DNA of 64,000 nt from a virus: positions 1 through 64,000 of IMG/VR virus record IMGVR_UViG_3300012943_000031; one strand, 5' to 3'. The notes beneath the pieces were generated by a model that had not been told where the DNA came from, ran no database searches, and was given only the letters and a program-made list of their open reading frames with translations. The position numbers and the translations under genes are program-made. Of this stretch, positions 7,337 to 55,125 are shown piece after piece. Position 1 is the first letter of the stretch; the number at the start of each line of letters is the position of its first letter.

Positions 7337-7688
7337 CGTCTAGTAATTTTCGGTAAATTGATATTGATTGTCTTGCCTCAGAGACTAACCTACCATATTG
7401 TATACGCAGTAAATCTACCTCATGTCTCTCAATGACTAGATTCTTCTTTATATTATTGATGGTCTTCTCATTGTCATCAAGAGTGTCAATTCTATGTGCA
7501 GTGGATAGCAACATGATATTTGCTGTCAGCACAATAGCTAATGAAACAGCCAATATACAGGCATACAAGATGACAACAGATTGATTATGAGGGCCGGGTA
7601 AGAATGTTCCCATTGGATTCACTACACCAAATAGGAATACAGGAATTATCATAATATTGGATAATATAATCCATCTACGTAGTTTCAT
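7263..7688 (-). CDS. Hypothetical membrane protein
   Basis: Two N-terminal hydrophobic helices followed by a coiled coil. Confidence 0.6.
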   Translation of the reverse strand: MKLRRWIILSNIMIIPVFLFGVVNPMGTFLPGPHNQSVVILYACILAVSLAIVLTANIMLLSTAHRIDTLDDNEKTINNIKKNLVIERHEVDLLRIQYGRLVSEARQSISIYRKLLDDEEIRIQQAKKPSNKATETASGGT

Positions 7689-46568: not shown

Positions 46569-47675
46569 ATGGCTTGTAACGAACAAAATCCATGCAATCA
46601 AGACCCATGCCCAGATTTATATGACAACTGTGGCTGTGTTAATCCAAATACGTTTGGATGTACTACCTATACAGGGACATCATTAGAATGTCTTGATATA
46701 GACAATGGTACAAATGGGGATGATGTATTGGGTAAAATTGAAGAGGCTGTATGTGACCTTCAGGAGAACAAAGGTAAAGTTCTTATTGATGGCACAGATA
46801 CATGTCCTGAATACCTATTTGATAAACTAGAAGAAGGTACTAATATCTCTTTCAATATCACTGGAACAGGATGTGATAGAAAATTAGTTATTAATGCAGT
46901 AGAAGGTGGTGAACCAGTAGATGTTAATGTAAAAATTACATCTAATGACACAACTTCTGGATACCTTGACCAAAAGATTCAGACAGGTACATACTTAACT
47001 AAATCTGTAGTTTCTCCTACAGCTAATGAAAAACTAAGATTAGACGTAAATGTAGCATCTTTAGTATCTGGAGATTCAGGTAACCAATTAACAATTGGAG
47101 GTGATGGTGGTCTTAAGACTTTATATACTGCACCTGATGGAAGTGAAACTAAGGTTATGCAGGGTACAGGAACTACTGTAACAGGTACTGGTACTGTAAG
47201 TGATCCTTACATAGTATCTACTAACCCGACTATCCAAGTAGCACGTCCATGTTTTGATGGAGTATGGAGAAACATAACATTGGCCCTAACAGGTAATGTG
47301 AATGTTGTTTATGCATCAGGAACACCTCAGTTCAGGTATCGTTTTGATGGTACTATTGAGTTTAGAGGTTCAATTACCTACACAGTTGATTTCGGAGCAT
47401 ACACTACTGCTAACAGAAAATACACCATCCCTATGGGAAGTATTGCTGTAACATGTGTAACTGCTGGTGAATTAATTGGCACAAAAGACTTAAAAGGAAT
47501 AAATTATATAGATGTACCACAGGCTGGTGCTGACCAATATACACAAATGTATGGATACATACTACGTATGTCAGCACAGAACTTAACTTTAGAGTTCCAG
47601 TCTTCGTTTATTAACAGTACATCAAAATCTATAGTGGTTAATTTGGAAGGAGCAGTAGTTCATCCAAATATATAA
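46569..47675 (+). CDS. Putative tail fibre protein
   Basis: Cys-rich N-terminus, repeated VxxxxxDTxxxYLxxK, VTGTGTVSDPY motif, beta-rich C-terminus. Confidence 0.6.
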   Translation: MACNEQNPCNQDPCPDLYDNCGCVNPNTFGCTTYTGTSLECLDIDNGTNGDDVLGKIEEAVCDLQENKGKVLIDGTDTCPEYLFDKLEEGTNISFNITGTGCDRKLVINAVEGGEPVDVNVKITSNDTTSGYLDQKIQTGTYLTKSVVSPTANEKLRLDVNVASLVSGDSGNQLTIGGDGGLKTLYTAPDGSETKVMQGTGTTVTGTGTVSDPYIVSTNPTIQVARPCFDGVWRNITLALTGNVNVVYASGTPQFRYRFDGTIEFRGSITYTVDFGAYTTANRKYTIPMGSIAVTCVTAGELIGTKDLKGINYIDVPQAGADQYTQMYGYILRMSAQNLTLEFQSSFINSTSKSIVVNLEGAVVHPNI

Positions 47676-47720
47676 TAACTATTGAAAACCTCGGTTGTTG
47701 GTTCTCCGAGAACAGTTTAT

Positions 47721-47744
47721 AGGGCCATCTCTATGGCCCTTTTT
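47721..47744 (+). terminator. Intrinsic terminator insulating the tRNA island
   Basis: AGGGCCAT-ctct-ATGGCCCT-TTTT. Confidence 0.75.
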
Positions 47745-47852
47745 ATCTGGCACAATTTTTGAACATTATAAATATAAAAGCTATGACAATCTTAAAAGGT
47801 GGAGGATGTGGATGTGGTGGAAAAAAATAATTTCCCATTTTCACAAAATAAA

Positions 47853-47884
47853 TTTGGAATTTGCCAAATTACTTCGTATATTTG
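47853..47884 (+). promoter_or_regulatory. Promoter of tRNA operon 1
   Basis: TTTG-N20-TATATTTG. Confidence 0.85.
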
Positions 47885-47888
47885 CATT

Positions 47889-47978
47889 ATGAATTTACAT
47901 CGTACACATACATGGTTTACTACTTGTCCCCAATGTCCATTTGGAGGAGAAGGGTGTTGTATGTGTGAAAATAAATAA
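47889..47978 (+). CDS. Leader peptide 1 (attenuator), MNLHRTHTWFTTCPQCPFGGEGCCMCENK
   Basis: ATG 4 nt after the -7 box. Codons 4-18 use only H,R,T,W,F,C,P,Q, the amino acids of the downstream tRNAs. Confidence 0.8.
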   Translation: MNLHRTHTWFTTCPQCPFGGEGCCMCENK

Positions 47979-48039
47979 GTTTTTTCTTATTCATACTTAA
48001 AAACCCTTCAGTAATCCAATCACAACTGAAGGGTTTTTT
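47904..48039 (+). terminator. Attenuator 1 (1:2, 2:3 antiterminator, 3:4 terminator)
   Basis: 1:2 ACACATACA 47904-12 / TGTATGTGT 47958-66. 2:3 GAAGGGT 47949-55 / ACCCTTC 48003-09, plus GTATG/CATAC and AATAAG/CTTATT. 3:4 AAACCCTTCAGT / ACTGAAGGGTTT with U-tract. Confidence 0.8.
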
Positions 48040-48047
48040 CTTTTTAT

Positions 48048-48123
48048 CGGGTAGTGGGAGAATGGTTAGTCCACTATGTTTGGGGCATAGAAAATGTCAG
48101 TTCGAGTCTGATCTACCCGACCA
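48048..48123 (+). tRNA. tRNA-Pro(TGG)
   Basis: Cloverleaf, anticodon arm CTATG-TTTGGGG-CATAG, CCA encoded. Confidence 0.92.
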
Positions 48124-48129
48124 AATAAT

Positions 48130-48205
48130 GCCAGTGTAGCACAACAGGTAGTGCAGTACTCTTGTAAAGTAAAGGTTGCAAGTTCGATTCTTGTCACTGG
48201 CTCCA
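48130..48205 (+). tRNA. tRNA-Thr(TGT)
   Basis: Loop CTTGTAA, CCA encoded. Confidence 0.92.
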
Positions 48206-48213
48206 AATTATAT

Positions 48214-48287
48214 GGCCGTATAGCCAAGTGGTAAGGCACATGTCTGCAAAACTTTGATCCCCAGTTCGAATCTGGGTACGGCTTCCA
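48214..48287 (+). tRNA. tRNA-Cys(GCA)
   Basis: Loop CTGCAAA, U73, CCA encoded. Confidence 0.92.
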
Positions 48288-48290
48288 TAT

Positions 48291-48365
48291 GGTGCACTAA
48301 CTCAATGGTAGAGTTCCTCCCTGAAAAGGAGGGTGTTCCCAGTTCAAGTCTGGGGTGTACCACCA
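48291..48365 (+). tRNA. tRNA-Phe(GAA)
   Basis: Loop CTGAAAA, CCA encoded. Confidence 0.92.
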
Positions 48366-48368
48366 CAT

Positions 48369-48439
48369 ACGGGTATGGTGAAATGGTATCATAACAGTCT
48401 CCAAAACTGCTGTTCAGGGTTCGAATCCTTGTACCCGTG
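48369..48439 (+). tRNA. tRNA-Trp(CCA)
   Basis: Loop CTCCAAA, G73. Confidence 0.9.
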
Positions 48440-48491
48440 CTTTTTCTTATTCCCACATTTCCCTGAGAAATCAAACTTGTGGGTTTCGTAT

Positions 48492-48565
48492 TGTCTCATG
48501 GTGTAATGGCAACATAAGAAGCTTTGACCTTCTTGTTTCAGGTTCGAGCCCTGATGGGACATCCA
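48492..48565 (+). tRNA. tRNA-Gln(TTG)
   Basis: AGAAG-CTTTGAC-CTTCT, CCA encoded. Confidence 0.9.
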
Positions 48566-48570
48566 AATAT

Positions 48571-48641
48571 TACCTTATAGTGTAATGGTAACACACCACT
48601 CTCTGAAAGTGTTGTTTAAGGTTCGAGTCCTTATAAGGTAA
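48571..48641 (+). tRNA. tRNA-Gln(CTG)
   Basis: Loop CTCTGAA. Confidence 0.9.
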
Positions 48642-48643
48642 CT

Positions 48644-48717
48644 GTGACTATAGCTTAATGGTTTAGAGCCCTTGGTTGTGACCCAAGGTAGTGTCAGTTC
48701 GAATCTGATTAGTCACC
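48644..48717 (+). tRNA. tRNA-His(GTG)
   Basis: CTTGG-TTGTGAC-CCAAG, C73; T rather than G at -1. Confidence 0.9.
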
Positions 48718-48722
48718 TAAAT

Positions 48723-48793
48723 GCCCTATTAGTATAATGGAAGTATCTGAGAATACGAATCTCAGGGTAGGAGTTCAAATCTTCTATAGGGTT
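48723..48793 (+). tRNA. tRNA-Arg(ACG)
   Basis: TGAGA-ATACGAA-TCTCA. Confidence 0.85.
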
Positions 48794-48820
48794 CTGGTAC
48801 ACTTCTTGCTATATGAAAGT

Positions 48821-48997
48821 ATGGTAATGAAAGGTAAAAATAAACTAGAAAGAATGGAATTACGTGCTGCTAAAAGATTTAACAGACGTTCTAAGAAAAT
48901 AAAATTCCATCTTACTAATGATTGGAGTTGGACATTTCCTATCCCTAAAGAGGGAATTCCAAAAATAGTTGAAGAAATATTTGGAAACGGCAAATAA
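48821..48997 (+). CDS. Small basic hypothetical protein
   Basis: MVMKGKNKLERMELRAAKRFNRR...; the longer start in the track overlaps tRNA-Arg. Confidence 0.5.
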   Translation: MVMKGKNKLERMELRAAKRFNRRSKKIKFHLTNDWSWTFPIPKEGIPKIVEEIFGNGK

Positions 48998-49011
48998 ATG
49001 TCGTATCTTTG
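48980..49011 (+). promoter_or_regulatory. Promoter of tRNA operon 2
   Basis: TTTG-N20-TATCTTTG. Confidence 0.85.
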
Positions 49012-49038
49012 TATTATAAAATTTAAAAGCAGCAAATA

Positions 49039-49113
49039 ATGTACTTAATAAATATGATAGTGGATAGAATTAATGGGGCAGAGAAATCTGGCTCTGGACT
49101 TCTATTGTCATAA
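49039..49113 (+). CDS. Leader peptide 2 (attenuator), MYLINMIVDRINGAEKSGSGLLLS
   Basis: Codons 4-16 give I,N,M,V,D,R,G,A,E,K, exactly the ten amino acids of the downstream tRNAs. Confidence 0.8.
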   Translation: MYLINMIVDRINGAEKSGSGLLLS

Positions 49114-49177
49114 TCATAGTACTGATTACCAATATTTTAGAAGCCCAGAGCCTACGAAAGTTAGCTCTGGGTTTTTT
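49053..49177 (+). terminator. Attenuator 2
   Basis: 1:2 TATGATAGTGGA / TCTATTGTCATA. 2:3 GGCTCTGGACTTCTA 49090-104 / TAGAAGCCCAGAGCC 49138-152 (14 of 15 pair). 3:4 AGCCCAGAGC / GCTCTGGGTT with U-tract. Confidence 0.85.
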
Positions 49178-49180
49178 AAT

Positions 49181-49253
49181 GCCCTTGTAGCAAACTGGTT
49201 GTAGGCAATAGTCTTTTAAACTATGGGGTCTGGTTCGATTCCAGACGGGGGTA
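49181..49253 (+). tRNA. tRNA-Lys(TTT)
   Basis: ATAGT-CTTTTAA-ACTAT. Confidence 0.88.
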
Positions 49254-49261
49254 CACAATAT

Positions 49262-49333
49262 GCAGGATTAATTCAATGGTAGAAATCCATCTTTACATGG
49301 TGGAAGCTGGGAGTTCGAGTCTCTCATCCTGTA
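49262..49333 (+). tRNA. tRNA-Val(TAC)
   Basis: CCATC-TTTACAT-GGTGG. Confidence 0.88.
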
Positions 49334-49339
49334 CAATAA

Positions 49340-49411
49340 CTCTCTATAGCACAATGGAAGTGTAACTGCCTTCTAAGCAGTTTGGTATAGGTTCGAATCC
49401 TATTAGAGAGT
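49340..49411 (+). tRNA. tRNA-Arg(TCT)
   Basis: ACTGC-CTTCTAA-GCAGT. Confidence 0.9.
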
Positions 49412-49456
49412 CAGGTCAGTTTTCCAATTCTGCGTGGAGTACAAAATTGGATATAT

Positions 49457-49528
49457 TCCTCATTAGCTCAATGGTAGAGCGCAAAGCTGTTAACTTTGGA
49501 GATTTAGGTTCGAGTCCTAAGTGGGGAG
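49457..49528 (+). tRNA. tRNA-Asn(GTT)
   Basis: CAAAG-CTGTTAA-CTTTG, G73. Confidence 0.92.
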
Positions 49529-49538
49529 CATAATTACA

Positions 49539-49613
49539 TGTAGGGTGGACTGGAGATGGTTCCAGCTTGGTCTCATAAGCCAAATGACAGGGGTTCGAAT
49601 CCCTTCCCTGCAT
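49539..49613 (+). tRNA. tRNA with CAT anticodon (Met; initiator vs elongator unresolved)
   Basis: TTGGT-CTCATAA-GCCAA. Confidence 0.85.
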
Positions 49614-49618
49614 CTATA

Positions 49619-49771
49619 CTGTAAGGTGGTGAAATAGGCAGACACATCCACTTGTCTCGTGGACACAGATAAAGAAATAGATTAGGTATAATGGGGTTGA
49701 CCACTAATGTTTAACTTATTGTGTATCTAATTGAATCTCTGTATGAGTGGTTCAAATCCCTCCCTTACAGC
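49619..49771 (+). ncRNA. tRNA-like RNA (GTC anticodon) with an ~80-nt hairpin variable arm
   Basis: Acceptor CTGTAAGG/CCTTACAG, D-arm GTG-AAATAGGCAGA-CAC, TCCAC-TTGTCTC-GTGGA, long hairpin 49664-49744, T-loop TTCAAAT. Confidence 0.7.
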
Positions 49772-49776
49772 AACAT

Positions 49777-49850
49777 TGCACATTAGCCAAGAGGTCTAAG
49801 GCATCACTCTCATAAGGTGACATTCATGAGTTCGAATCTCATATGTGCAA
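49777..49850 (+). tRNA. tRNA with CAT anticodon (Met or lysidine-Ile2)
   Basis: TCACT-CTCATAA-GGTGA, A73. Confidence 0.88.
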
Positions 49851-49879
49851 CATTTGATAATTTTCCTTATATTTGTAAA

Positions 49880-50347
49880 ATGGAAAAGTATTTCAGAACA
49901 GAGCAAGGAGAAAGAGTAAATATAGTTGAACACACTTTGGAACAAATCCAGAAGTGGCCCAACCTAGAGATTTACATAGCAACAGACTCTCAAGACCAAG
50001 GTGGAAAGAGTAGATATGCTACAGTAATTGTCTACAGATATGGGAAAAGAGGTGCTCACTATATATACTTTAGAGAAGACGTACCACGTTGTAAGGACAT
50101 GTATACTCGTCTATATGATGAGGCTGTTCGTACAATTGATACAGCACAGTTAATAGACAGTGAGATACCTGTTAAGTTTGCCGGGTTAGAGTTTGACTAC
50201 AATAACCTACCAAGACATAACAGTAACAAATTACTCTCTTCTGTAAGAGGATGGGTAACAGGATTAAATTACAATGCTGTCTTCAAAGGTGATGAATTAG
50301 TAGCTGCAAAAGCTGCTGACCATGTTTGTAGACACAAGAATATATAA
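49880..50347 (+). CDS. RNase H-like YkuK/DUF458 family protein
   Basis: IYIATDSQ...YATVIV...RLYDEAVRTI...DYN...AAKAAD motifs; ATG after TATATTTG. Confidence 0.8.
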   Translation: MEKYFRTEQGERVNIVEHTLEQIQKWPNLEIYIATDSQDQGGKSRYATVIVYRYGKRGAHYIYFREDVPRCKDMYTRLYDEAVRTIDTAQLIDSEIPVKFAGLEFDYNNLPRHNSNKLLSSVRGWVTGLNYNAVFKGDELVAAKAADHVCRHKNI

Positions 50348-50382
50348 GAGATGGATTGCAGCACTCTTTAAAATGCTGATTT

Positions 50383-50456
50383 GCAGAGGTAGTTAAATGG
50401 TATAATGCCTTCCTTCCAAGTAGGATTTGGGAGTTCGATTCTCCTCCTCTGCTCCA
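50383..50456 (+). tRNA. tRNA-Gly(TCC)
   Basis: Loop CTTCCAA, U73, CCA encoded. Confidence 0.92.
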
Positions 50457-50457
50457 T

Positions 50458-50529
50458 GCATTAGTAGCTCAATGGTAGAGTACTACCTTGCCAAGGTAGG
50501 AGTTGACAGTTCGAATCTGTTCTAGTGCT
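50458..50529 (+). tRNA. tRNA-Gly(GCC)
   Basis: CTACC-TTGCCAA-GGTAG. Confidence 0.92.
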
Positions 50530-50535
50530 CAATAA

Positions 50536-50609
50536 CATGCTGTCATCTAATGGCTTAGGATAACGGACTTTCAATTCGTTCATGTCGGGTTCAATTCCCA
50601 CCAGCATGA
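50536..50609 (+). tRNA. tRNA-Glu(TTC)
   Basis: ACGGA-CTTTCAA-TTCGT. Confidence 0.88.
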
Positions 50610-50632
50610 CTAACAACTAAAGTCGAAGGACA

Positions 50633-51031
50633 ATGAGTAAACAAAGTAACCAAAAGAAGACTGAACAATTGGGTATGCCAATTGGTACAGCAAGTAATAG
50701 ATTGAGGAAATCAATTATCTTTAATCTGTTAAAGAAAGCAAATGAGAATTTCTGTTTCCAATGTGGAGCAGAAATAGAATTAGAGAATGAATTATCAATA
50801 GAACATAAGACTCCATATCTGGATTCTGAAGACCCACAAGGTCTGTTCTTTGATTTAGATAATATAGCTTTTTCTCACCTGTCATGCAATGTAGGTGCTG
50901 CAAGACAGACTCATAGAGTAAAGAATCATGGCCTGACTCTCTACAAAGATGGTTGTAGATGTGGTATTTGTGTGACAGCACAAAAAGAATCTTGGTCAAA
51001 ATATGATAAGAAGAGAAGAGTAAAAACGTAG
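50633..51031 (+). CDS. HNH endonuclease (free-standing, homing-type)
   Basis: CFQCG...LSIEHKTP...NIAFSHLSCN and C-terminal GCRCGIC. Confidence 0.8.
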   Translation: MSKQSNQKKTEQLGMPIGTASNRLRKSIIFNLLKKANENFCFQCGAEIELENELSIEHKTPYLDSEDPQGLFFDLDNIAFSHLSCNVGAARQTHRVKNHGLTLYKDGCRCGICVTAQKESWSKYDKKRRVKT

Positions 51032-51103
51032 GTGTAGTGTAACGGTTTAGCATATCTGCCTGTCACGCAGACGGTAGGAGTTCGAATCTCCCATCTACGG
51101 CCA
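51027..51103 (+). tRNA. tRNA-Asp(GTC), apparent 8/4 fold
   Basis: CGTAGGTG/CATCTACG 8-bp acceptor plus G-CCA, 4-bp T-stem GGAG/CTCC, anticodon arm TCTGC-CTGTCAC-GCAGA. Confidence 0.88.
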
Positions 51104-51105
51104 AT

Positions 51106-51178
51106 GTTGTTGTAGCTTAATGGTTAAAGCTCATGTCTTATACACATGTGAGTGAGAGTTCGAGTCTCTCCAACAACA
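51106..51178 (+). tRNA. tRNA-Ile(TAT)
   Basis: CATGT-CTTATAC-ACATG. Confidence 0.88.
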
Positions 51179-51187
51179 CACAAATAT

Positions 51188-51262
51188 GTTGATATAGCTC
51201 AATGGTGGAGCACTTGTCTGATACACAAGAGGATGAAGGTTCGAGTCCCTCTATCAACACCA
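51188..51262 (+). tRNA. tRNA-Ile(GAT)
   Basis: CTTGT-CTGATAC-ACAAG, CCA encoded. Confidence 0.92.
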
Positions 51263-51265
51263 TAT

Positions 51266-51338
51266 GGGGGTGAAGTTCTAGTGGATGAACACCTGTCTTG
51301 CACACAGGAAGTTGTGGATTCGAGTTTCACCACCTCCA
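51266..51338 (+). tRNA. tRNA-Ala(TGC)
   Basis: G3.U70 pair, CCTGT-CTTGCAC-ACAGG. Confidence 0.9.
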
Positions 51339-51341
51339 CAT

Positions 51342-51372
51342 AACCTACTGATAATCAGTCAGTAGGTTTTTT
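51342..51372 (+). terminator. Terminator ending tRNA operon 2
   Basis: AACCTACTGA-taatcag-TCAGTAGGTT-TTTT. Confidence 0.8.
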
Positions 51373-51409
51373 ATTTGGTAAACTGGCAGGATTTTTGTAC
51401 CTTTATAGT

Positions 51410-51883
51410 ATGATAACAGCAATAGTTATGCTCAGTATAGCACTTATAGTGGCAATTCTTCTTCTCCTTAGAAAGGAGGAATGTGAAGAGTCAGGATATA
51501 TTGAAATATCATTTATTATTAATAATACAAAAATAACAGGAAAAAACATGGCATTAACAGCATTCCCACAACAAAAAACACCTTTCATTCTACAGCCGGT
51601 AGATAGAAAAGGTAATCCAGCACAAGTTGAAGCTGGAACAGTAGTTTTCACAGTAGATGATCCATCAATTGCAGAAGTTCAGGTAGACCCAACAAATGAG
51701 TTGGCAGGTACTATCATAACTAAAGCAGTAGGTGTAACACAGATTAATTATTCTGCTGATGCTGACTTAGGAGAAGGTGTAACAACTATTTCAGGTTTTG
51801 ACGCAATTGAAGTTAAAGCTGAACAAGCAGTTGGATTTGGTATCACTTTTGGCCCATCAGAGGACATAGAGGAAACACCTTAA
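51410..51883 (+). CDS. Membrane-anchored Ig-like (Big-2-like) protein
   Basis: TTTG-N20-TACCTTTA promoter, N-terminal TM, FTVDDPSIAEV...ITKAVGVTQI pattern; an alternative ATG lies at 51548. Confidence 0.6.
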   Translation: MITAIVMLSIALIVAILLLLRKEECEESGYIEISFIINNTKITGKNMALTAFPQQKTPFILQPVDRKGNPAQVEAGTVVFTVDDPSIAEVQVDPTNELAGTIITKAVGVTQINYSADADLGEGVTTISGFDAIEVKAEQAVGFGITFGPSEDIEETP

Positions 51884-51891
51884 AAGAAAAA

Positions 51892-51923
51892 TTTGGAATT
51901 TTATTCTCAGTACCGTATATTTG
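51892..51923 (+). promoter_or_regulatory. Promoter of the suppressor tRNA / Pth2 unit
   Basis: TTTG-N20-TATATTTG, overlapped by a 12-bp inverted repeat (51908-51941). Confidence 0.8.
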
Positions 51924-51934
51924 TGAAAGTATAC

Positions 51935-52006
51935 GGTACTGTAGTTTAATGGCAAAACAGCAGTCTCTAAAACTGAATAGTGTGGGTTCGATCCCCATCA
52001 GTACCA
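51935..52006 (+). tRNA. Amber suppressor tRNA (CTA anticodon)
   Basis: Acceptor GGTACTG/CAGTACC, A73, CAGT-CTCTAAA-ACTG, GTGGG-TTCGATC-CCCAT. Confidence 0.88.
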
Positions 52007-52023
52007 CAATTAAACCAAATACA

Positions 52024-52500
52024 ATGAGTAAGTAGATGGAAATCCAGAAACTGGTAACTGTGACCAGAACTGACTTACCTGAAGGTTATCAGGCAGTACA
52101 GTCAACACATGCAGCAATTGATTTTGTTTTTGAACATCCTACACGTGCTGGCCCTTGGCATAAAAACAGTAATACGTTAGTGATGTTAACAGTAAAGGAC
52201 ACGAAAGGTCTCCTTCACCTAATGAGGAAGTGTGATTATCTGTCTATAGCTTATACTGTTTTCAGGGAACCAGATATTGGTAACCAAATCACAGCCATCT
52301 GTATGGAGCCTCATGAGGAGGTTTACAAGATGGTTAGTAAGCTACCTTTATTAATACCAAAAACACAATCAAATGAATACCAAGACACTATCAATCAAAG
52401 CCAAGTTAGCCAACCAAGTGAGAACAATCTTCTACAAGAAGTGGGATGTGACGAAAATCACAGAACACGAACAGAAGAGGATGTTGAGAGAGTTAGCTGA
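52024..52500 (+). CDS. Pth2-family peptidyl-tRNA hydrolase-like protein, with in-frame TAG at codon 4
   Basis: KLVTVTRTDLPEGYQAVQSTHA...LVMLTV...FREPDIGNQITAI fits the PTH2 pattern. ATG AGT AAG TAG ATG at 52024-52038, with the A-rich leader before the first ATG. Confidence 0.75.
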
Positions 52501-52648
52501 GTTAACTAAAGAAGTTCACTATGAGTTAAATCTCTACAAGGGTAAGAGAAGAGATAAGAAAATACTCTTAGAAAAGAGGTTAGAAGCCCCTCAAACAAAG
52601 ACCATGAAGAAGAAACTGAAAGGTCACAGAAAAGAAATTTCAAAATAA
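52373..52648 (+). CDS. Basic hypothetical protein
   Basis: ORF track; AAAAACACAATCAA leader. Confidence 0.55.
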   Translation: MNTKTLSIKAKLANQVRTIFYKKWDVTKITEHEQKRMLRELAELTKEVHYELNLYKGKRRDKKILLEKRLEAPQTKTMKKKLKGHRKEISK

Positions 52649-52649
52649 A

Positions 52650-52681
52650 TTTGGAAATCGTGAAAAAAGGTTGTATATTTG
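52650..52681 (+). promoter_or_regulatory. Promoter of tRNA operon 3
   Basis: TTTG-N20-TATATTTG. Confidence 0.85.
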
Positions 52682-52685
52682 CAGT

Positions 52686-52733
52686 ATGAAAATAACATCA
52701 ACATATAGTTCCTTGTCGTTACTCTATAGCTAA
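52686..52733 (+). CDS. Leader peptide 3 (attenuator), MKITSTYSSLSLLYS
   Basis: Codons 7-15 are only Y,S,L, the amino acids of the downstream tRNAs; ATG 4 nt after the -7 box. Confidence 0.8.
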   Translation: MKITSTYSSLSLLYS

Positions 52734-52814
52734 TAGAGCCGGGAATACTATGTGTCAAAAATAACTATCTTGATTTTACATAACATGACCCGGTATTTCT
52801 ATACTGGGTTTTTT
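52702..52814 (+). terminator. Attenuator 3
   Basis: 1:2 CATATAGTTCC / GGAATACTATGTG with inner CTCTAT/ATAGAG. 2:3 CCGGG 52739-43 / CCCGG 52789-93, plus TATGTG/TACATA. 3:4 ACCCGGTAT-ttct-ATACTGGGT-TTTTT. Confidence 0.78.
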
Positions 52815-52821
52815 GTTTTAT

Positions 52822-52895
52822 GGCATTGTGATGGAACTGGGATACATACCTGTCTTAGAAACAGTTTTTTGTGGGTTCGAATCCCACCTTTGCCA
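52822..52895 (+). tRNA. tRNA-Leu(TAG), short variable region
   Basis: CTGT-CTTAGAA-ACAG; acceptor stem has two T.T mismatches. Confidence 0.8.
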
Positions 52896-52898
52896 CAT

Positions 52899-52977
52899 GC
52901 TCCTATGGTGGAACGGTATACACGTCAGACTTAAAATCTGATCTTAATTGATGAGAGTTCGAATCTCTCTAGGAGCA
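52899..52977 (+). tRNA. tRNA-Leu(TAA)
   Basis: TCAGA-CTTAAAA-TCTGA, A73. Confidence 0.9.
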
Positions 52978-52978
52978 C

Positions 52979-53204
52979 AACAACCATAAACTATCGAGTT
53001 ACAACTTGCTGGGTACTTACTGGGTACTTGCGGGGTGTAATTAGGAAACTCAGCACATCTCTGCTTAAAATGGGAGGACTAGCAATCCGTTATTACCAAA
53101 GAGGATGAAACTCAAACAGACTAAGAAGGTGAGCAGTTCTATGAAGTCGGGTTAGAGGATTAGACAAATGATAGTTGATACAGAAAGCTGGTTATTGGGT
53201 TGTT
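52979..53204 (+). ncRNA. rnpB: Minimal RNase P RNA (~226 nt)
   Basis: P1 AACAACC/GGTTGTT, P2 AACTATCG/TGATAGTT, CR-I AGGAAACTCAGC, TAGACAAATG, CR-V ACAGAAAGCTGGTTA; P4 AAC(T)CAGC/GCTGGTT with the bulged U. Confidence 0.82.
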
Positions 53205-53209
53205 AAATT

Positions 53210-53299
53210 GGTGGGCCCCAGATGACAGAGGTACTCCGTCTTGAAAACGGCTATAACGGTAATCATTCCGTTGTAAGGGTTGGACTCCCTTGCCCACCT
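53210..53299 (+). tRNA. tRNA-Ser(TGA), atypical D-arm and T-loop
   Basis: GGTGGGC/GCCCACC, CCGT-CTTGAAA-ACGG, long variable arm, T-loop TTGGACT. Confidence 0.78.
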
Positions 53300-53306
53300 C
53301 AAATAA

Positions 53307-53396
53307 GGAGAATAGACGAATATTGGTTTGTCGTAACTACCTGCTAAGTAGTTCTGTGTAACAGCAGTAAGAGTTCAATTCTCTTATTCTCCGCCA
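53307..53396 (+). tRNA. tRNA-Ser(GCT)
   Basis: ACTAC-CTGCTAA-GTAGT, variable arm, G73, CCA encoded. Confidence 0.9.
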
Positions 53397-53400
53397 ATAT

Positions 53401-53473
53401 GGGATAGACAGCAGGGCACTGTAGACGGTCTGTAAAACCGAACTATGTAGAGTTTCGAATACTCCCTATCCCA
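53401..53473 (+). tRNA. tRNA-Tyr(GTA), short variable region
   Basis: GGGATAG/CTATCCC, A73, CGGT-CTGTAAA-ACCG. Confidence 0.8.
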
Positions 53474-53512
53474 CATTAACTTTTCTTTAACAGAAAAAAG
53501 TCTTACCTTTGT

Positions 53513-53537
53513 AGCCTCCTTCGGGAGGTTATTTTTT
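53513..53537 (+). terminator. Terminator ending tRNA operon 3
   Basis: AGCCTCC-TTCG-GGAGGTT-ATTTTTT. Confidence 0.75.
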
Positions 53538-53823
53538 GCCACCCAGTTATGGTACTGAGGTAAACGCCTACACGAGGTAGGATAGTTCCTTACAGAAGTT
53601 GGATTGGTAGCCCTAAATAAGGGTGAGATTTTCTCCAATAGTGGCGCAATGTTTTGAGTAAGAGGTAGTTGGTATCCAAGGGATTGGTCATTTCTATGAC
53701 GTGTGAGGAGGATACTGGGGTAACAATGCACTGGCTATCTTCAAGTGAGAAACAGTAAGTTAAAAAATTCATAAGGGATTGGTGTGTCTAATTGATGGCA
53801 CATTAATTGATTACATATTAAGT

Positions 53824-55125
53824 ATGATTATAAACAACATAACACAGAAATTTTTAGACAATCCGGGATACCTGAAAAATGGTGCTGGATACTTAGCAGA
53901 ACAATGGAAATGTTCAAAGGACGAAATTTATGAGGCCAAATCACAAGCCAGACAAATAATGGCAATGACTGAGGCAATAGAAAGAGCTAATGATACAGCA
54001 AACAGTTTTGAAGTTCAGGTTAAATCAGAACCACTGAAGTATACTGGATCAGAAACTACTCCAGATGGAACTGTAAAGAAATACGAATCAGACAAACCTC
54101 TAACACCAAAAGAAATCGAAGAGTTAGCAGGAGTTGATGGGATAAATACATACGTAGCTAGAGTTTGGGATAAGTTACTACCAAATGGTAAATGGACATA
54201 CTCAATCGATATTAGATACAGAGTAAAAGATTTCTATGATAGAAAGGAGCTAAACAGTAAGTTACTGGAAATCATGTCTTCTGTAGAAAGAACACCATTC
54301 AATCCAATGTCTGTTCCAAAAGGATTTAACAATAGATGCTTAAACATTCTCCTAGCTGATGACCACGTAGGTGCAATCAACGTAACTAACTTGTTTGATA
54401 ATCCTCATGTCACCTATAGGGATAGACTGTTAATGATACTAGATGAAGTAGCAGATTTGGGACAGGAATTTGATGAGGTACATATCATCTCATTAGGTGA
54501 CCAACTAAATGGATGGAACTCTCAGACTACTAGAGGTGGTCATGAGGTAAAGAGTAAGAGCAATAAGGAACAGTTTGACGAGTATGTTGCTGCAAGAATG
54601 GAGTTCTATACTAACATATTTGAATCAGGAATATCTCAGAACTACTATGTACATGATGTGGAGAACAGTAATCACTCAGGTCTGGGAATGTCATATATGG
54701 CTAATCAGGCACTGAAGTTGTGGATAGATGCAAAATATCCTTGGGTAATCCAAGAATCCATAACTGACATGGTAGGTGGGTTCCAATATGGACAACATGT
54801 TGTTATGTTTGGACATGGTAAGGATGAGAAATTCCAGATCAGACCTATGCCAGCAGTACTAAATGACAAGACTGACTTGTTTTTATATGACTTAGCACAA
54901 AATAAAGGTTACTCACCATATAATGATTCAATCACTTTCTATAAGGGAGACTTACACCAGCATGGTTTACAGAATGGTAAGTTTGGTAGATATGTGAATG
55001 TACAATCATTGGCCGGTAATTCCGACTATGGTGACTTAAACTTTGGAAATACTAAAGGTGGGGCTCTACTTGAAATACTACAAAAAGATAGTTACAAGAT
55101 AACCTCACAAGCAATTTGGTTCTAA
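53824..55125 (+). CDS. Calcineurin-like metallophosphoesterase-fold protein
   Basis: LADDHVG, SLGDQLNG, NSNH, GHG and GDLH motifs; ATG at 53824. Confidence 0.75.
   Translation: MIINNITQKFLDNPGYLKNGAGYLAEQWKCSKDEIYEAKSQARQIMAMTEAIERANDTANSFEVQVKSEPLKYTGSETTPDGTVKKYESDKPLTPKEIEELAGVDGINTYVARVWDKLLPNGKWTYSIDIRYRVKDFYDRKELNSKLLEIMSSVERTPFNPMSVPKGFNNRCLNILLADDHVGAINVTNLFDNPHVTYRDRLLMILDEVADLGQEFDEVHIISLGDQLNGWNSQTTRGGHEVKSKSNKEQFDEYVAARMEFYTNIFESGISQNYYVHDVENSNHSGLGMSYMANQALKLWIDAKYPWVIQESITDMVGGFQYGQHVVMFGHGKDEKFQIRPMPAVLNDKTDLFLYDLAQNKGYSPYNDSITFYKGDLHQHGLQNGKFGRYVNVQSLAGNSDYGDLNFGNTKGGALLEILQKDSYKITSQAIWF

Follow-up and report, generated by a model that had tools for sequence, protein, structure and literature searches.

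A probable leader-peptide attenuator preceding nine tRNA genes in a virus with Bacteroidota-type promoters

Nine transfer RNA (tRNA) genes in the uncultured virus record IMGVR_UViG_3300012943_000031 (IMG/VR) are probably the output of a ribosome-mediated transcription attenuator of the trp/thr style, in which a short leader peptide would sample the amino acids of the tRNAs encoded immediately downstream. The record is 106.8 kb long and has a G+C content of about 37%; the window analysed here is its first 64,000 nucleotides (nt), positions 1 to 64,000, one strand, 5' to 3'. Twenty-six of the 28 tRNA genes called by ARAGORN in the window sit within 47.8-53.5 kb, all on the + strand, and the genome carries three tRNA units of codon-matched design, of which unit 1 (47853-48794) is the main subject here. 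An earlier note on this DNA had claimed that a leader attenuator gates the nine tRNA genes of this unit. All available computation (codon match, RNA folds, conservation and the tracking of tRNA sets by leaders) supports that claim, the mechanism being what we infer from it. Sequence and computation, as described below, show the parts of the element, the alternative ways in which they pair, how they are conserved and how leader composition co-varies with the tRNA set.

The leader frame and its tRNA genes

The features of unit 1 that bear on its expression are as follows.

47853-47884, + strand: Bacteroidota-type promoter (-33 element TTTG at 47853-56, 20-nt spacer, -7 element TATATTTG at 47877-84)
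47889-47978, + strand: leader open reading frame (ORF) of 29 codons plus TAA (47976-78)
47898-47942, + strand: putative regulatory run, codons 4-18, made up only of His, Arg, Thr, Trp, Phe, Cys, Pro and Gln codons, with all eight present
48048-48794, + strand: regulated block of nine tRNA genes, as called by ARAGORN and Rfam

The tRNA genes follow in the order Pro(tgg), Thr(tgt), Cys(gca), Phe(gaa), Trp(cca), Gln(ttg), Gln(ctg), His(gtg) and Arg(acg). The earlier statement that 15 consecutive leader codons are limited to, and together cover, the eight amino acids of these tRNAs is borne out at 47898-47942, and so is the placing of the ATG 4 nt after the -7 box. Twelve codons of the run are strictly cognate to anticodons of the unit, and the other three are readable by U34 in four-codon boxes. 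None of the six frames of the window has a longer run drawn from the eight-amino-acid set; the second longest has 11 codons and only three residue types. Runs of at least 15 codons are expected about 0.0023 times per window (per-codon probability 0.313), a figure to be multiplied by 0.16 for the presence of all eight members, and none of 100 shuffles gave a 15-codon run, the shuffle maximum being 13. For the approximately 200 nt 5' of the tRNA block alone the expectation is of the order of 1e-6, and the ORF-level p is about 6e-7.

The -33 TTTG, the -7 TAnnTTTG and the spacing between them that characterize Bacteroidota sigma-ABfr promoters are all found at unit 1, and allow the start site to be predicted. 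The pattern TTTG-N20-TAnnTTTG has seven matches in the window, and four of these, on the + strand, head tRNA units (47853, 48980, 51892 and 52650); the N20 spacing is also present in relatives of this virus. A sigma-70 promoter scan of the window was uninformative, with fewer matches than in shuffles. The -7 element of Flavobacterium johnsoniae spans -12 to -5, its G lying at -5, and in bona fide promoters it is separated from the start site by 4-5 nt (PMC6847099); by this rule +1 is predicted on the A of the ATG at 47889. The leader ORF is probably translated from a leaderless 5'-AUG, which fits this geometry. The 4-nt spacing between -7 box and ATG recurs in eight units of several phages, other units having leaders of 16-37 nt. 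This recurrence looks designed, because short 5' untranslated regions are uncommon in Bacteroides, with only about 3.7% below 10 nt (PMC7366714).

The terminator that follows the leader ends its U tract at 48046, leaving a gap of 1 nt before tRNA-Pro at 48048. No promoter-type motif was found between the terminator and tRNA-Pro. Of the recurring promoter type, the sole upstream example is that at 47853, and the next one along, at 48980, is 3' of the last tRNA of unit 1. The tRNA genes of unit 1 therefore appear to depend on read-through, and a strong terminator at that position is sensible only when it is regulated or leaky. Inside the unit, the gap between tRNA-Trp and the first tRNA-Gln holds a hairpin (48441-48491) that is also found in the related contig L001 (L001:12140-12174) with a different sequence, and that may be a processing or partial termination signal.

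The same design occurs twice more in this genome. The leader of unit 2 (49039-49113) has a 13-codon run covering all ten amino acids of the tRNAs downstream, and that of unit 3 (52686-52733) has a Ser/Leu/Tyr run 5' of Leu, Ser and Tyr-type tRNAs; the amino-acid sets of units 1-3 jointly comprise all 20 amino acids. In a matrix of leaders by tRNA sets, each leader of the window scores best against the set of its own unit. The choice among Arg codons also follows the anticodon: leader 1, with tRNA acg, uses CGT, and leader 2, with tRNA tct, uses AGA.

Alternative RNA structures and the proposed switch

Four RNA elements lie between the start of the regulatory run and the tRNA block.

47903-47933, + strand: segment 1, the 5' strand of the leader hairpin, within the regulatory codons (outer helix 47903-12)
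47941-47967, + strand: segment 2, the 3' strand of the leader hairpin (outer helix 47958-67), carrying GAAGGGU at 47949-55
47946-48017, + strand: composite antiterminator (key helix 47949-55 / 48003-09, plus 47946-48 / 48015-17)
47999-48046, + strand: intrinsic terminator (14-bp stem 47999-48012 / 48025-48038, 12-nt loop, U tract 48039-46; -17.5 kcal/mol)

Two of the pairings had been put forward in the earlier note, and both prove exact: the helix between segments 1 and 2, which overlaps the regulatory codons and has nine Watson-Crick pairs (47904-12 / 47958-66), and that between the GAAGGGT of segment 2 (47949-55) and the 5' arm of the terminator (48003-09). In the minimum free energy (MFE) fold a long hairpin forms, and the first of these pairings, lengthened to 47903-12 / 47958-67, is its outer helix. 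The free leader folds as this long imperfect hairpin at -26.9 kcal/mol (z about -2.9), and the duplex of segments 1 and 2 has -25.3 kcal/mol (z -2.96 against shuffles). The antiterminator encloses inner helices, at approximately 47960-68 / 47991-99 and in a small hairpin around the stop codon. Its duplex in unit 1 (-12.2 kcal/mol) ranks 2 of 26 against swapped terminators, with a shuffle p of 0.02.

Folding of partial transcripts separates the alternatives. When the RNA is folded before segment 4 (the 3' arm of the terminator) exists, the MFE structure pairs 47949-55 with 48003-09, at about -20 to -31 kcal/mol; masking of a ribosome footprint at codons 4-15 likewise leaves the antiterminator as the MFE structure of the nascent RNA, again at -20 to -31 kcal/mol. 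A footprint at codon 18 or at the stop codon covers GAAGGGU, and only the terminator can then form. A cognate-rich leader ORF, an intrinsic terminator before the regulated genes and mutually exclusive helices, all of which define known attenuators, are thus found here; the genes for amino-acid biosynthesis, transport or aminoacyl-tRNA synthetases that known attenuators regulate are not, and nine tRNA genes stand in their place.

In the following scheme we infer that the ORF is translated, in which direction the switch works and what its physiological signal is. Host RNA polymerase would begin transcription on the ATG at 47889 or beside it, with a ribosome starting on the leader immediately. 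With all eight kinds of aminoacyl-tRNA plentiful, the ribosome would pass codons 4-18 and move over segment 2, whereas with no ribosome loaded the leader hairpin 1:2 would form. In either case GAAGGGU would be unavailable, the terminator (3:4) would form, and transcription would stop 1 nt before tRNA-Pro. If any cognate tRNA were scarce, the ribosome would stall at about codons 4-15, holding segment 1 open and freeing segment 2, which could then pair with the emerging 5' arm of the terminator (2:3), so that the polymerase would continue into the tRNA genes. The fresh tRNAs would relieve the stall, closing a loop of supply on demand. A response to tRNA gene dosage is known for leader-peptide attenuators: hisL-based reporters respond to deletion or overexpression of proK/L/M (PMC8129111), and pheA is derepressed in a mutant without one tRNA-Phe gene (PMC3082878).

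Relatives and the tracking of tRNA sets

A GenBank phage search with the region gave tRNA-level matches only and no relatives, a viral scan with the single Pth2-like protein encoded in the window gave no match, and a degenerate leader DNA pattern search gave no contig beyond one already known. The protein of 368 amino acids encoded by the upstream neighbour gene served as a lead to one related contig, L001, and homologues of the Pth2-like gene (alignment A1) led to 80 viral loci and 80 metagenome loci. Their tRNAs were called by ARAGORN, and tRNA blocks were kept if a hairpin plus T run lay at most 40 nt 5' of a tRNA; the candidate leader was taken as the longest ORF that starts with ATG, has 10-60 codons and stops 5-65 nt 5' of the hairpin. 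Duplex energies were computed for each sequence separately, with swap and shuffle controls, the MAFFT alignment (A2) having left the terminators out of register for column-wise covariation.

Homologues of leader 1 were found at L001:11337-11429, L089:274-369, L092:1688-1774, L097:4491-4592 and L005:8870-8977. In a core of nine codons, all 54 residues of the six homologues (that of the window included) fall within the eight-amino-acid set, although most columns are variable. Of the pairwise non-synonymous differences in this core, all 50 are between members of the set; L001 and L089, a pair free of indels, differ by four synonymous and no non-synonymous codon changes. Such confinement of the variation to the set speaks for a frame under selection to contain these codons, and against a peptide whose sequence or fold is held constant by selection. 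All six ORFs end in TAA, never in TAG or TGA, and these phages carry amber or opal suppressor tRNAs.

The layout of three structures (1:2, 2:3 and 3:4) is kept in the six homologues despite changed helix sequences, and in each of them the regulatory codons lie in the 5' strand of a long hairpin of the leader. For the outer 1:2 helix, the window has ACACAUACA/UGUAUGUGU, L089 has CGCAAUACGCA/UGCGUAUUGUG and L031 has CAUUUACACAG/UUGUGUAAAUG. Changes in the antiterminator strand go together with changes in the terminator arm, the pair being GAAGGGU:ACCCUUC in the window and GAAGGCUGC:GCAGCCUUC in L001 (-19.7 kcal/mol); corresponding pairs are also found in L089, L092 and L097. In the comparison of 26 units, native duplexes of leader and terminator are stronger than shuffled ones (mean z -3.3), and when terminators are swapped between units most native pairs take a rank of 1-3 of 26.

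Where the set of tRNAs is a different one, the composition of the leader changes with it. The leader at L039:12520-12612 has a 14-codon run of exactly Leu, Ser, Tyr, Gln, His and Pro (p about 6e-6), and the unit after it has tRNAs for Pro, His, Ser, Ser and Tyr, four for Leu and two for Gln. The leader at L066:14613-14699 contains WSSRRRSSSR and its unit consists of Ser, Ser, Ser, Arg, Arg, Trp and Arg tRNAs (p about 1e-7). In L031 the unit has gained a tRNA-Glu beside Pro, Cys, Phe, Thr, Arg and Gln, and the leader (7430-7504) has Glu codons. A frame of L028 with an eight-codon run of exactly His, Glu, Val, Trp and Leu precedes a unit of those tRNAs. The unit of L092 is without tRNA-Arg, and the 14-codon core of its leader is without Arg; its tRNA-Thr has the anticodon ggt, and three of the four Thr codons of the leader are ACY (ACC, ACT, ACT). 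An additional tRNA that follows this unit is of the opal-suppressor type and has a promoter of its own. The leader-by-set score matrix places every short leader best with its own type of set, and Arg codons are CGT or CGC in leaders of type 1 (tRNA acg) and AGA in those of type 2 (tRNA tct). Among the run codons of 20 leaders, strictly cognate codons number 182, those readable by U34 in family boxes 23 and non-cognate ones 13, most of the last being Ser codons in units with a possibly missed Ser tRNA or a contig end.

The arrangement is not universal. No leaders were found before the other tRNA blocks of L039, L008 and L068, and the Asn unit of L008 has only a partial leader match. Candidates in L007, L023/L127, L069, L093 and L158 were rejected as attenuators: there the upstream ORF is the end of a normal protein gene with no set match, and the terminators were taken to be ordinary.

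The surroundings of unit 1 include several further elements. One of them ends the gene for the 368-amino-acid protein:

47721-47749, + strand: terminator of the upstream gene (8-bp stem plus T run)

This terminator insulates unit 1 against transcription from upstream. Directly 5' of the unit-1 promoter is a mini-ORF of 15 codons (47783-47830) with a conserved Gly/Cys core, GGGCGCGG; its counterpart in L001 (L001:11225-11287) has 20 codons. There is no terminator 3' of the mini-ORF, which could be a peptide gene or a further sensor frame. Between the tRNAs of unit 2 lie genes for an RNase H-like protein (PF04308; 49880-50347) and an HNH endonuclease (PF01844; 50633-51031), and further downstream an amber-suppressor tRNA (51935-52007) is followed by the Pth2-like gene (52036-52500). 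This last arrangement is paralleled in L092, in which a tRNA with an opal-reading (TCA) anticodon loop (L092:2613-2686) has its own Bacteroidota-type promoter and precedes a Pth2-like gene. A weak Rfam match to RNase P RNA (53015-53194; E 0.014, far below gathering) falls between Leu and Ser tRNAs, and 53400-53475, directly 3' of tRNA-Ser, is a tRNA-like sequence with a GTA (Tyr) anticodon context that was called by neither ARAGORN nor the Rfam tRNA model.

Competing explanations, known systems and significance

Several observations weigh against codon-matched attenuation of the tRNA genes. Leaderless mRNAs are rare in Bacteroidota (PMC7366714). The key antiterminator helix of unit 1 has only 7 bp (-12.2 kcal/mol), and in the full-length RNA the terminator is always in the MFE structure, so that the switch has to decide kinetically, as classical attenuators do. 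A ribosome stalled on the last three codons of the run (16-18) would cover GAAGGGU and so hide the antiterminator strand; for this reason signalling is probably limited to codons 4 to about 15. Most amino acids of the run are covered by just one or two codons, so that sensitivity to a single tRNA may be low. By the swap and shuffle test of duplexes, no significant antiterminator was found for unit 1 of L005, for L066 or for L028. Tracking is imperfect as well: the L031 leader retains His and Trp codons without such tRNAs in its unit, the L089 leader has an Asn codon between Arg and the run, and the leaders of L005 and L097 begin with an additional N-terminal stretch (L005:8870-8905 and L097:4491-4520) rich in Asn, Met, Ile and Arg(AGA), which elsewhere are amino acids of unit 2. 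Finally, leaders are wholly missing from many tRNA blocks of more distant phages.

The explanation that survives best beside a response to tRNA shortage, although we regard it as unlikely, is that the attenuator is real and reports amino-acid starvation (uncharged tRNA), or that translation in the infected cell is slowed or uncoupled in general, with the codon match serving only to pair the tRNAs made with the frame that tests them. From what is known of trp and his attenuation, loss of a tRNA and loss of its charging look alike to a ribosome, which senses only the rate at which ternary complexes arrive. An array of trn genes in Anabaena is moreover induced by general translational stress (PMC8421152, PMC10272220). 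A sensor of general slowing, however, needs neither a leader matched to the tRNA set of each unit nor a choice between CGY and AGA, and amino-acid starvation is not cured by more tRNA; the output therefore fits a shortage of tRNA best.

It is considerably less probable that the ORF encodes a small Cys-rich, zinc-knuckle-like peptide (CxxC...CxxC), followed by an ordinary terminator with leaky read-through into the tRNAs, and that the match of amino acids is incidental. Two CxxC motifs do recur in the leader peptides of the window, L001, L089, L097 and L005, and the Gly/Cys-rich mini-ORF 47783-47830, conserved in L001, adjoins upstream. The leader ORF has no Pfam family match, however, and the codons of its second Cys-Met-Cys are the exact reverse complement of the Thr-His-Thr codons in helix 1:2. 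Its residues vary freely, yet solely inside the tRNA set, and the leaders of L031, L039 and L066 and of units 2 and 3 of the window have no CxxC motif, yet match their own tRNA sets. A Cys-rich peptide would also leave the co-varying antiterminator unexplained.

Just as improbable in our judgement is a hairpin and U tract acting as an RNA processing or stability element, or as a constitutive partial terminator that sets tRNA dosage, the ORF aiding by ribosome loading or protection with no sensing of codons. The terminator adjoins the RNase P site of the first tRNA, and a detectable antiterminator is missing from some units, as this explanation would allow; it predicts, on the other hand, no match to the tRNA set, no cognate codon choice and no pairings kept through sequence change. 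As for a chance ORF beside a terminator, short ORFs are common in AT-rich DNA and the initial reading took in a very large number of windows, but a chance expectation of about 4e-4 per window and 6e-7 at this location, two further matched units in the genome, six conserved homologues and independent matches in other lineages make it scarcely credible. A T-box (RF00230) or an Rfam leader family (Trp, His, Thr, Leu, Phe leaders and others) was rejected in the absence of any cmscan match; over 47000-54500 at E <= 1, cmscan gave only tRNA matches, chance-level antisense matches and the weak RNase P match.

Leader-peptide attenuation of the tRNA genes thus remains the reading we favour, and its nearest counterparts are the enterobacterial attenuators (thrL, the ilvGMEDA leader, trpL, hisL and pheL), which likewise have a short translated leader with regulatory codons, 1:2, 2:3 and 3:4 helices and an intrinsic terminator. 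Sampling of several amino acids in one frame is known among them: thrL samples Thr and Ile, and the ilvGMEDA leader Ile, Leu and Val. Their output is biosynthetic enzymes, whereas here it is tRNA genes. The phage leader samples eight amino acids one to four times each, in contrast to long runs of one to three kinds, and its antiterminator strand is inside the ORF and not after the stop. Unlike the enterobacterial attenuators, it is phage-borne, with a Bacteroidota-type promoter, a probably leaderless mRNA and no match to an Rfam leader family.

Other known systems share single aspects with unit 1. In the leaders of synthetase genes (E. coli pheST; hisS paralogues of Bacilli, PMC2965389) a translation component is controlled by stalling at codons of its own amino acid, but each controls one synthetase for one amino acid, whereas the phage leader would control the decoded tRNAs, with feedback directly on the sensed quantity. 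The mycobacterial leaderless polycysteine ORFs (bioRxiv 10.1101/834739) are also short ORFs with a leaderless 5'-AUG whose codon content couples an operon to one amino acid; they differ in having Cys-related protein genes, a single-amino-acid frame, another phylum and another downstream mechanism. The trn array of Anabaena PCC 7120 (PMC8421152) resembles the phage units as a supernumerary and horizontally mobile tRNA array that is off until translation is impaired, but it is controlled by the ribbon-helix-helix repressor TrcR at its promoter (PMC10272220), with no codon-matched leader and terminator and no specificity per unit. T-box riboswitches, too, report the state of a specific tRNA by a choice between terminator and antiterminator; they bind uncharged tRNA directly through one specifier codon and a large conserved fold, without translation, whereas the phage string of codons stands in an ATG-to-TAA frame. 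No paper describing control of tRNA genes by leader-peptide attenuation, in phage or cell, came up in literature searches of incomplete coverage.

Phage tRNA genes are usually viewed as constitutive aids to codon usage or as spares against tRNA-cleaving defences, and little is known of their regulation. More tentatively, the three attenuators of this genome could form a surveillance circuit for the host tRNA pool and act as an inducible counter-defence, with the ribosome as its gauge of tRNA levels. Each unit would then be silent until its own tRNAs were depleted, by host anticodon nucleases, other tRNA-targeting defences or phage-induced host shut-off, and would replace exactly the depleted tRNAs before switching off. 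If attenuation of the tRNA genes is correct, it would be the first attenuation system producing the sensed molecule itself, a direct homeostatic loop of tRNA supply, and would extend leader-peptide attenuation to eight amino acids per frame, to leaderless transcripts of the Bacteroidota type and to viruses. Such units would offer compact natural sensors of tRNA availability for engineering, and they raise the question of whether phages sense the depletion of specific host tRNAs.

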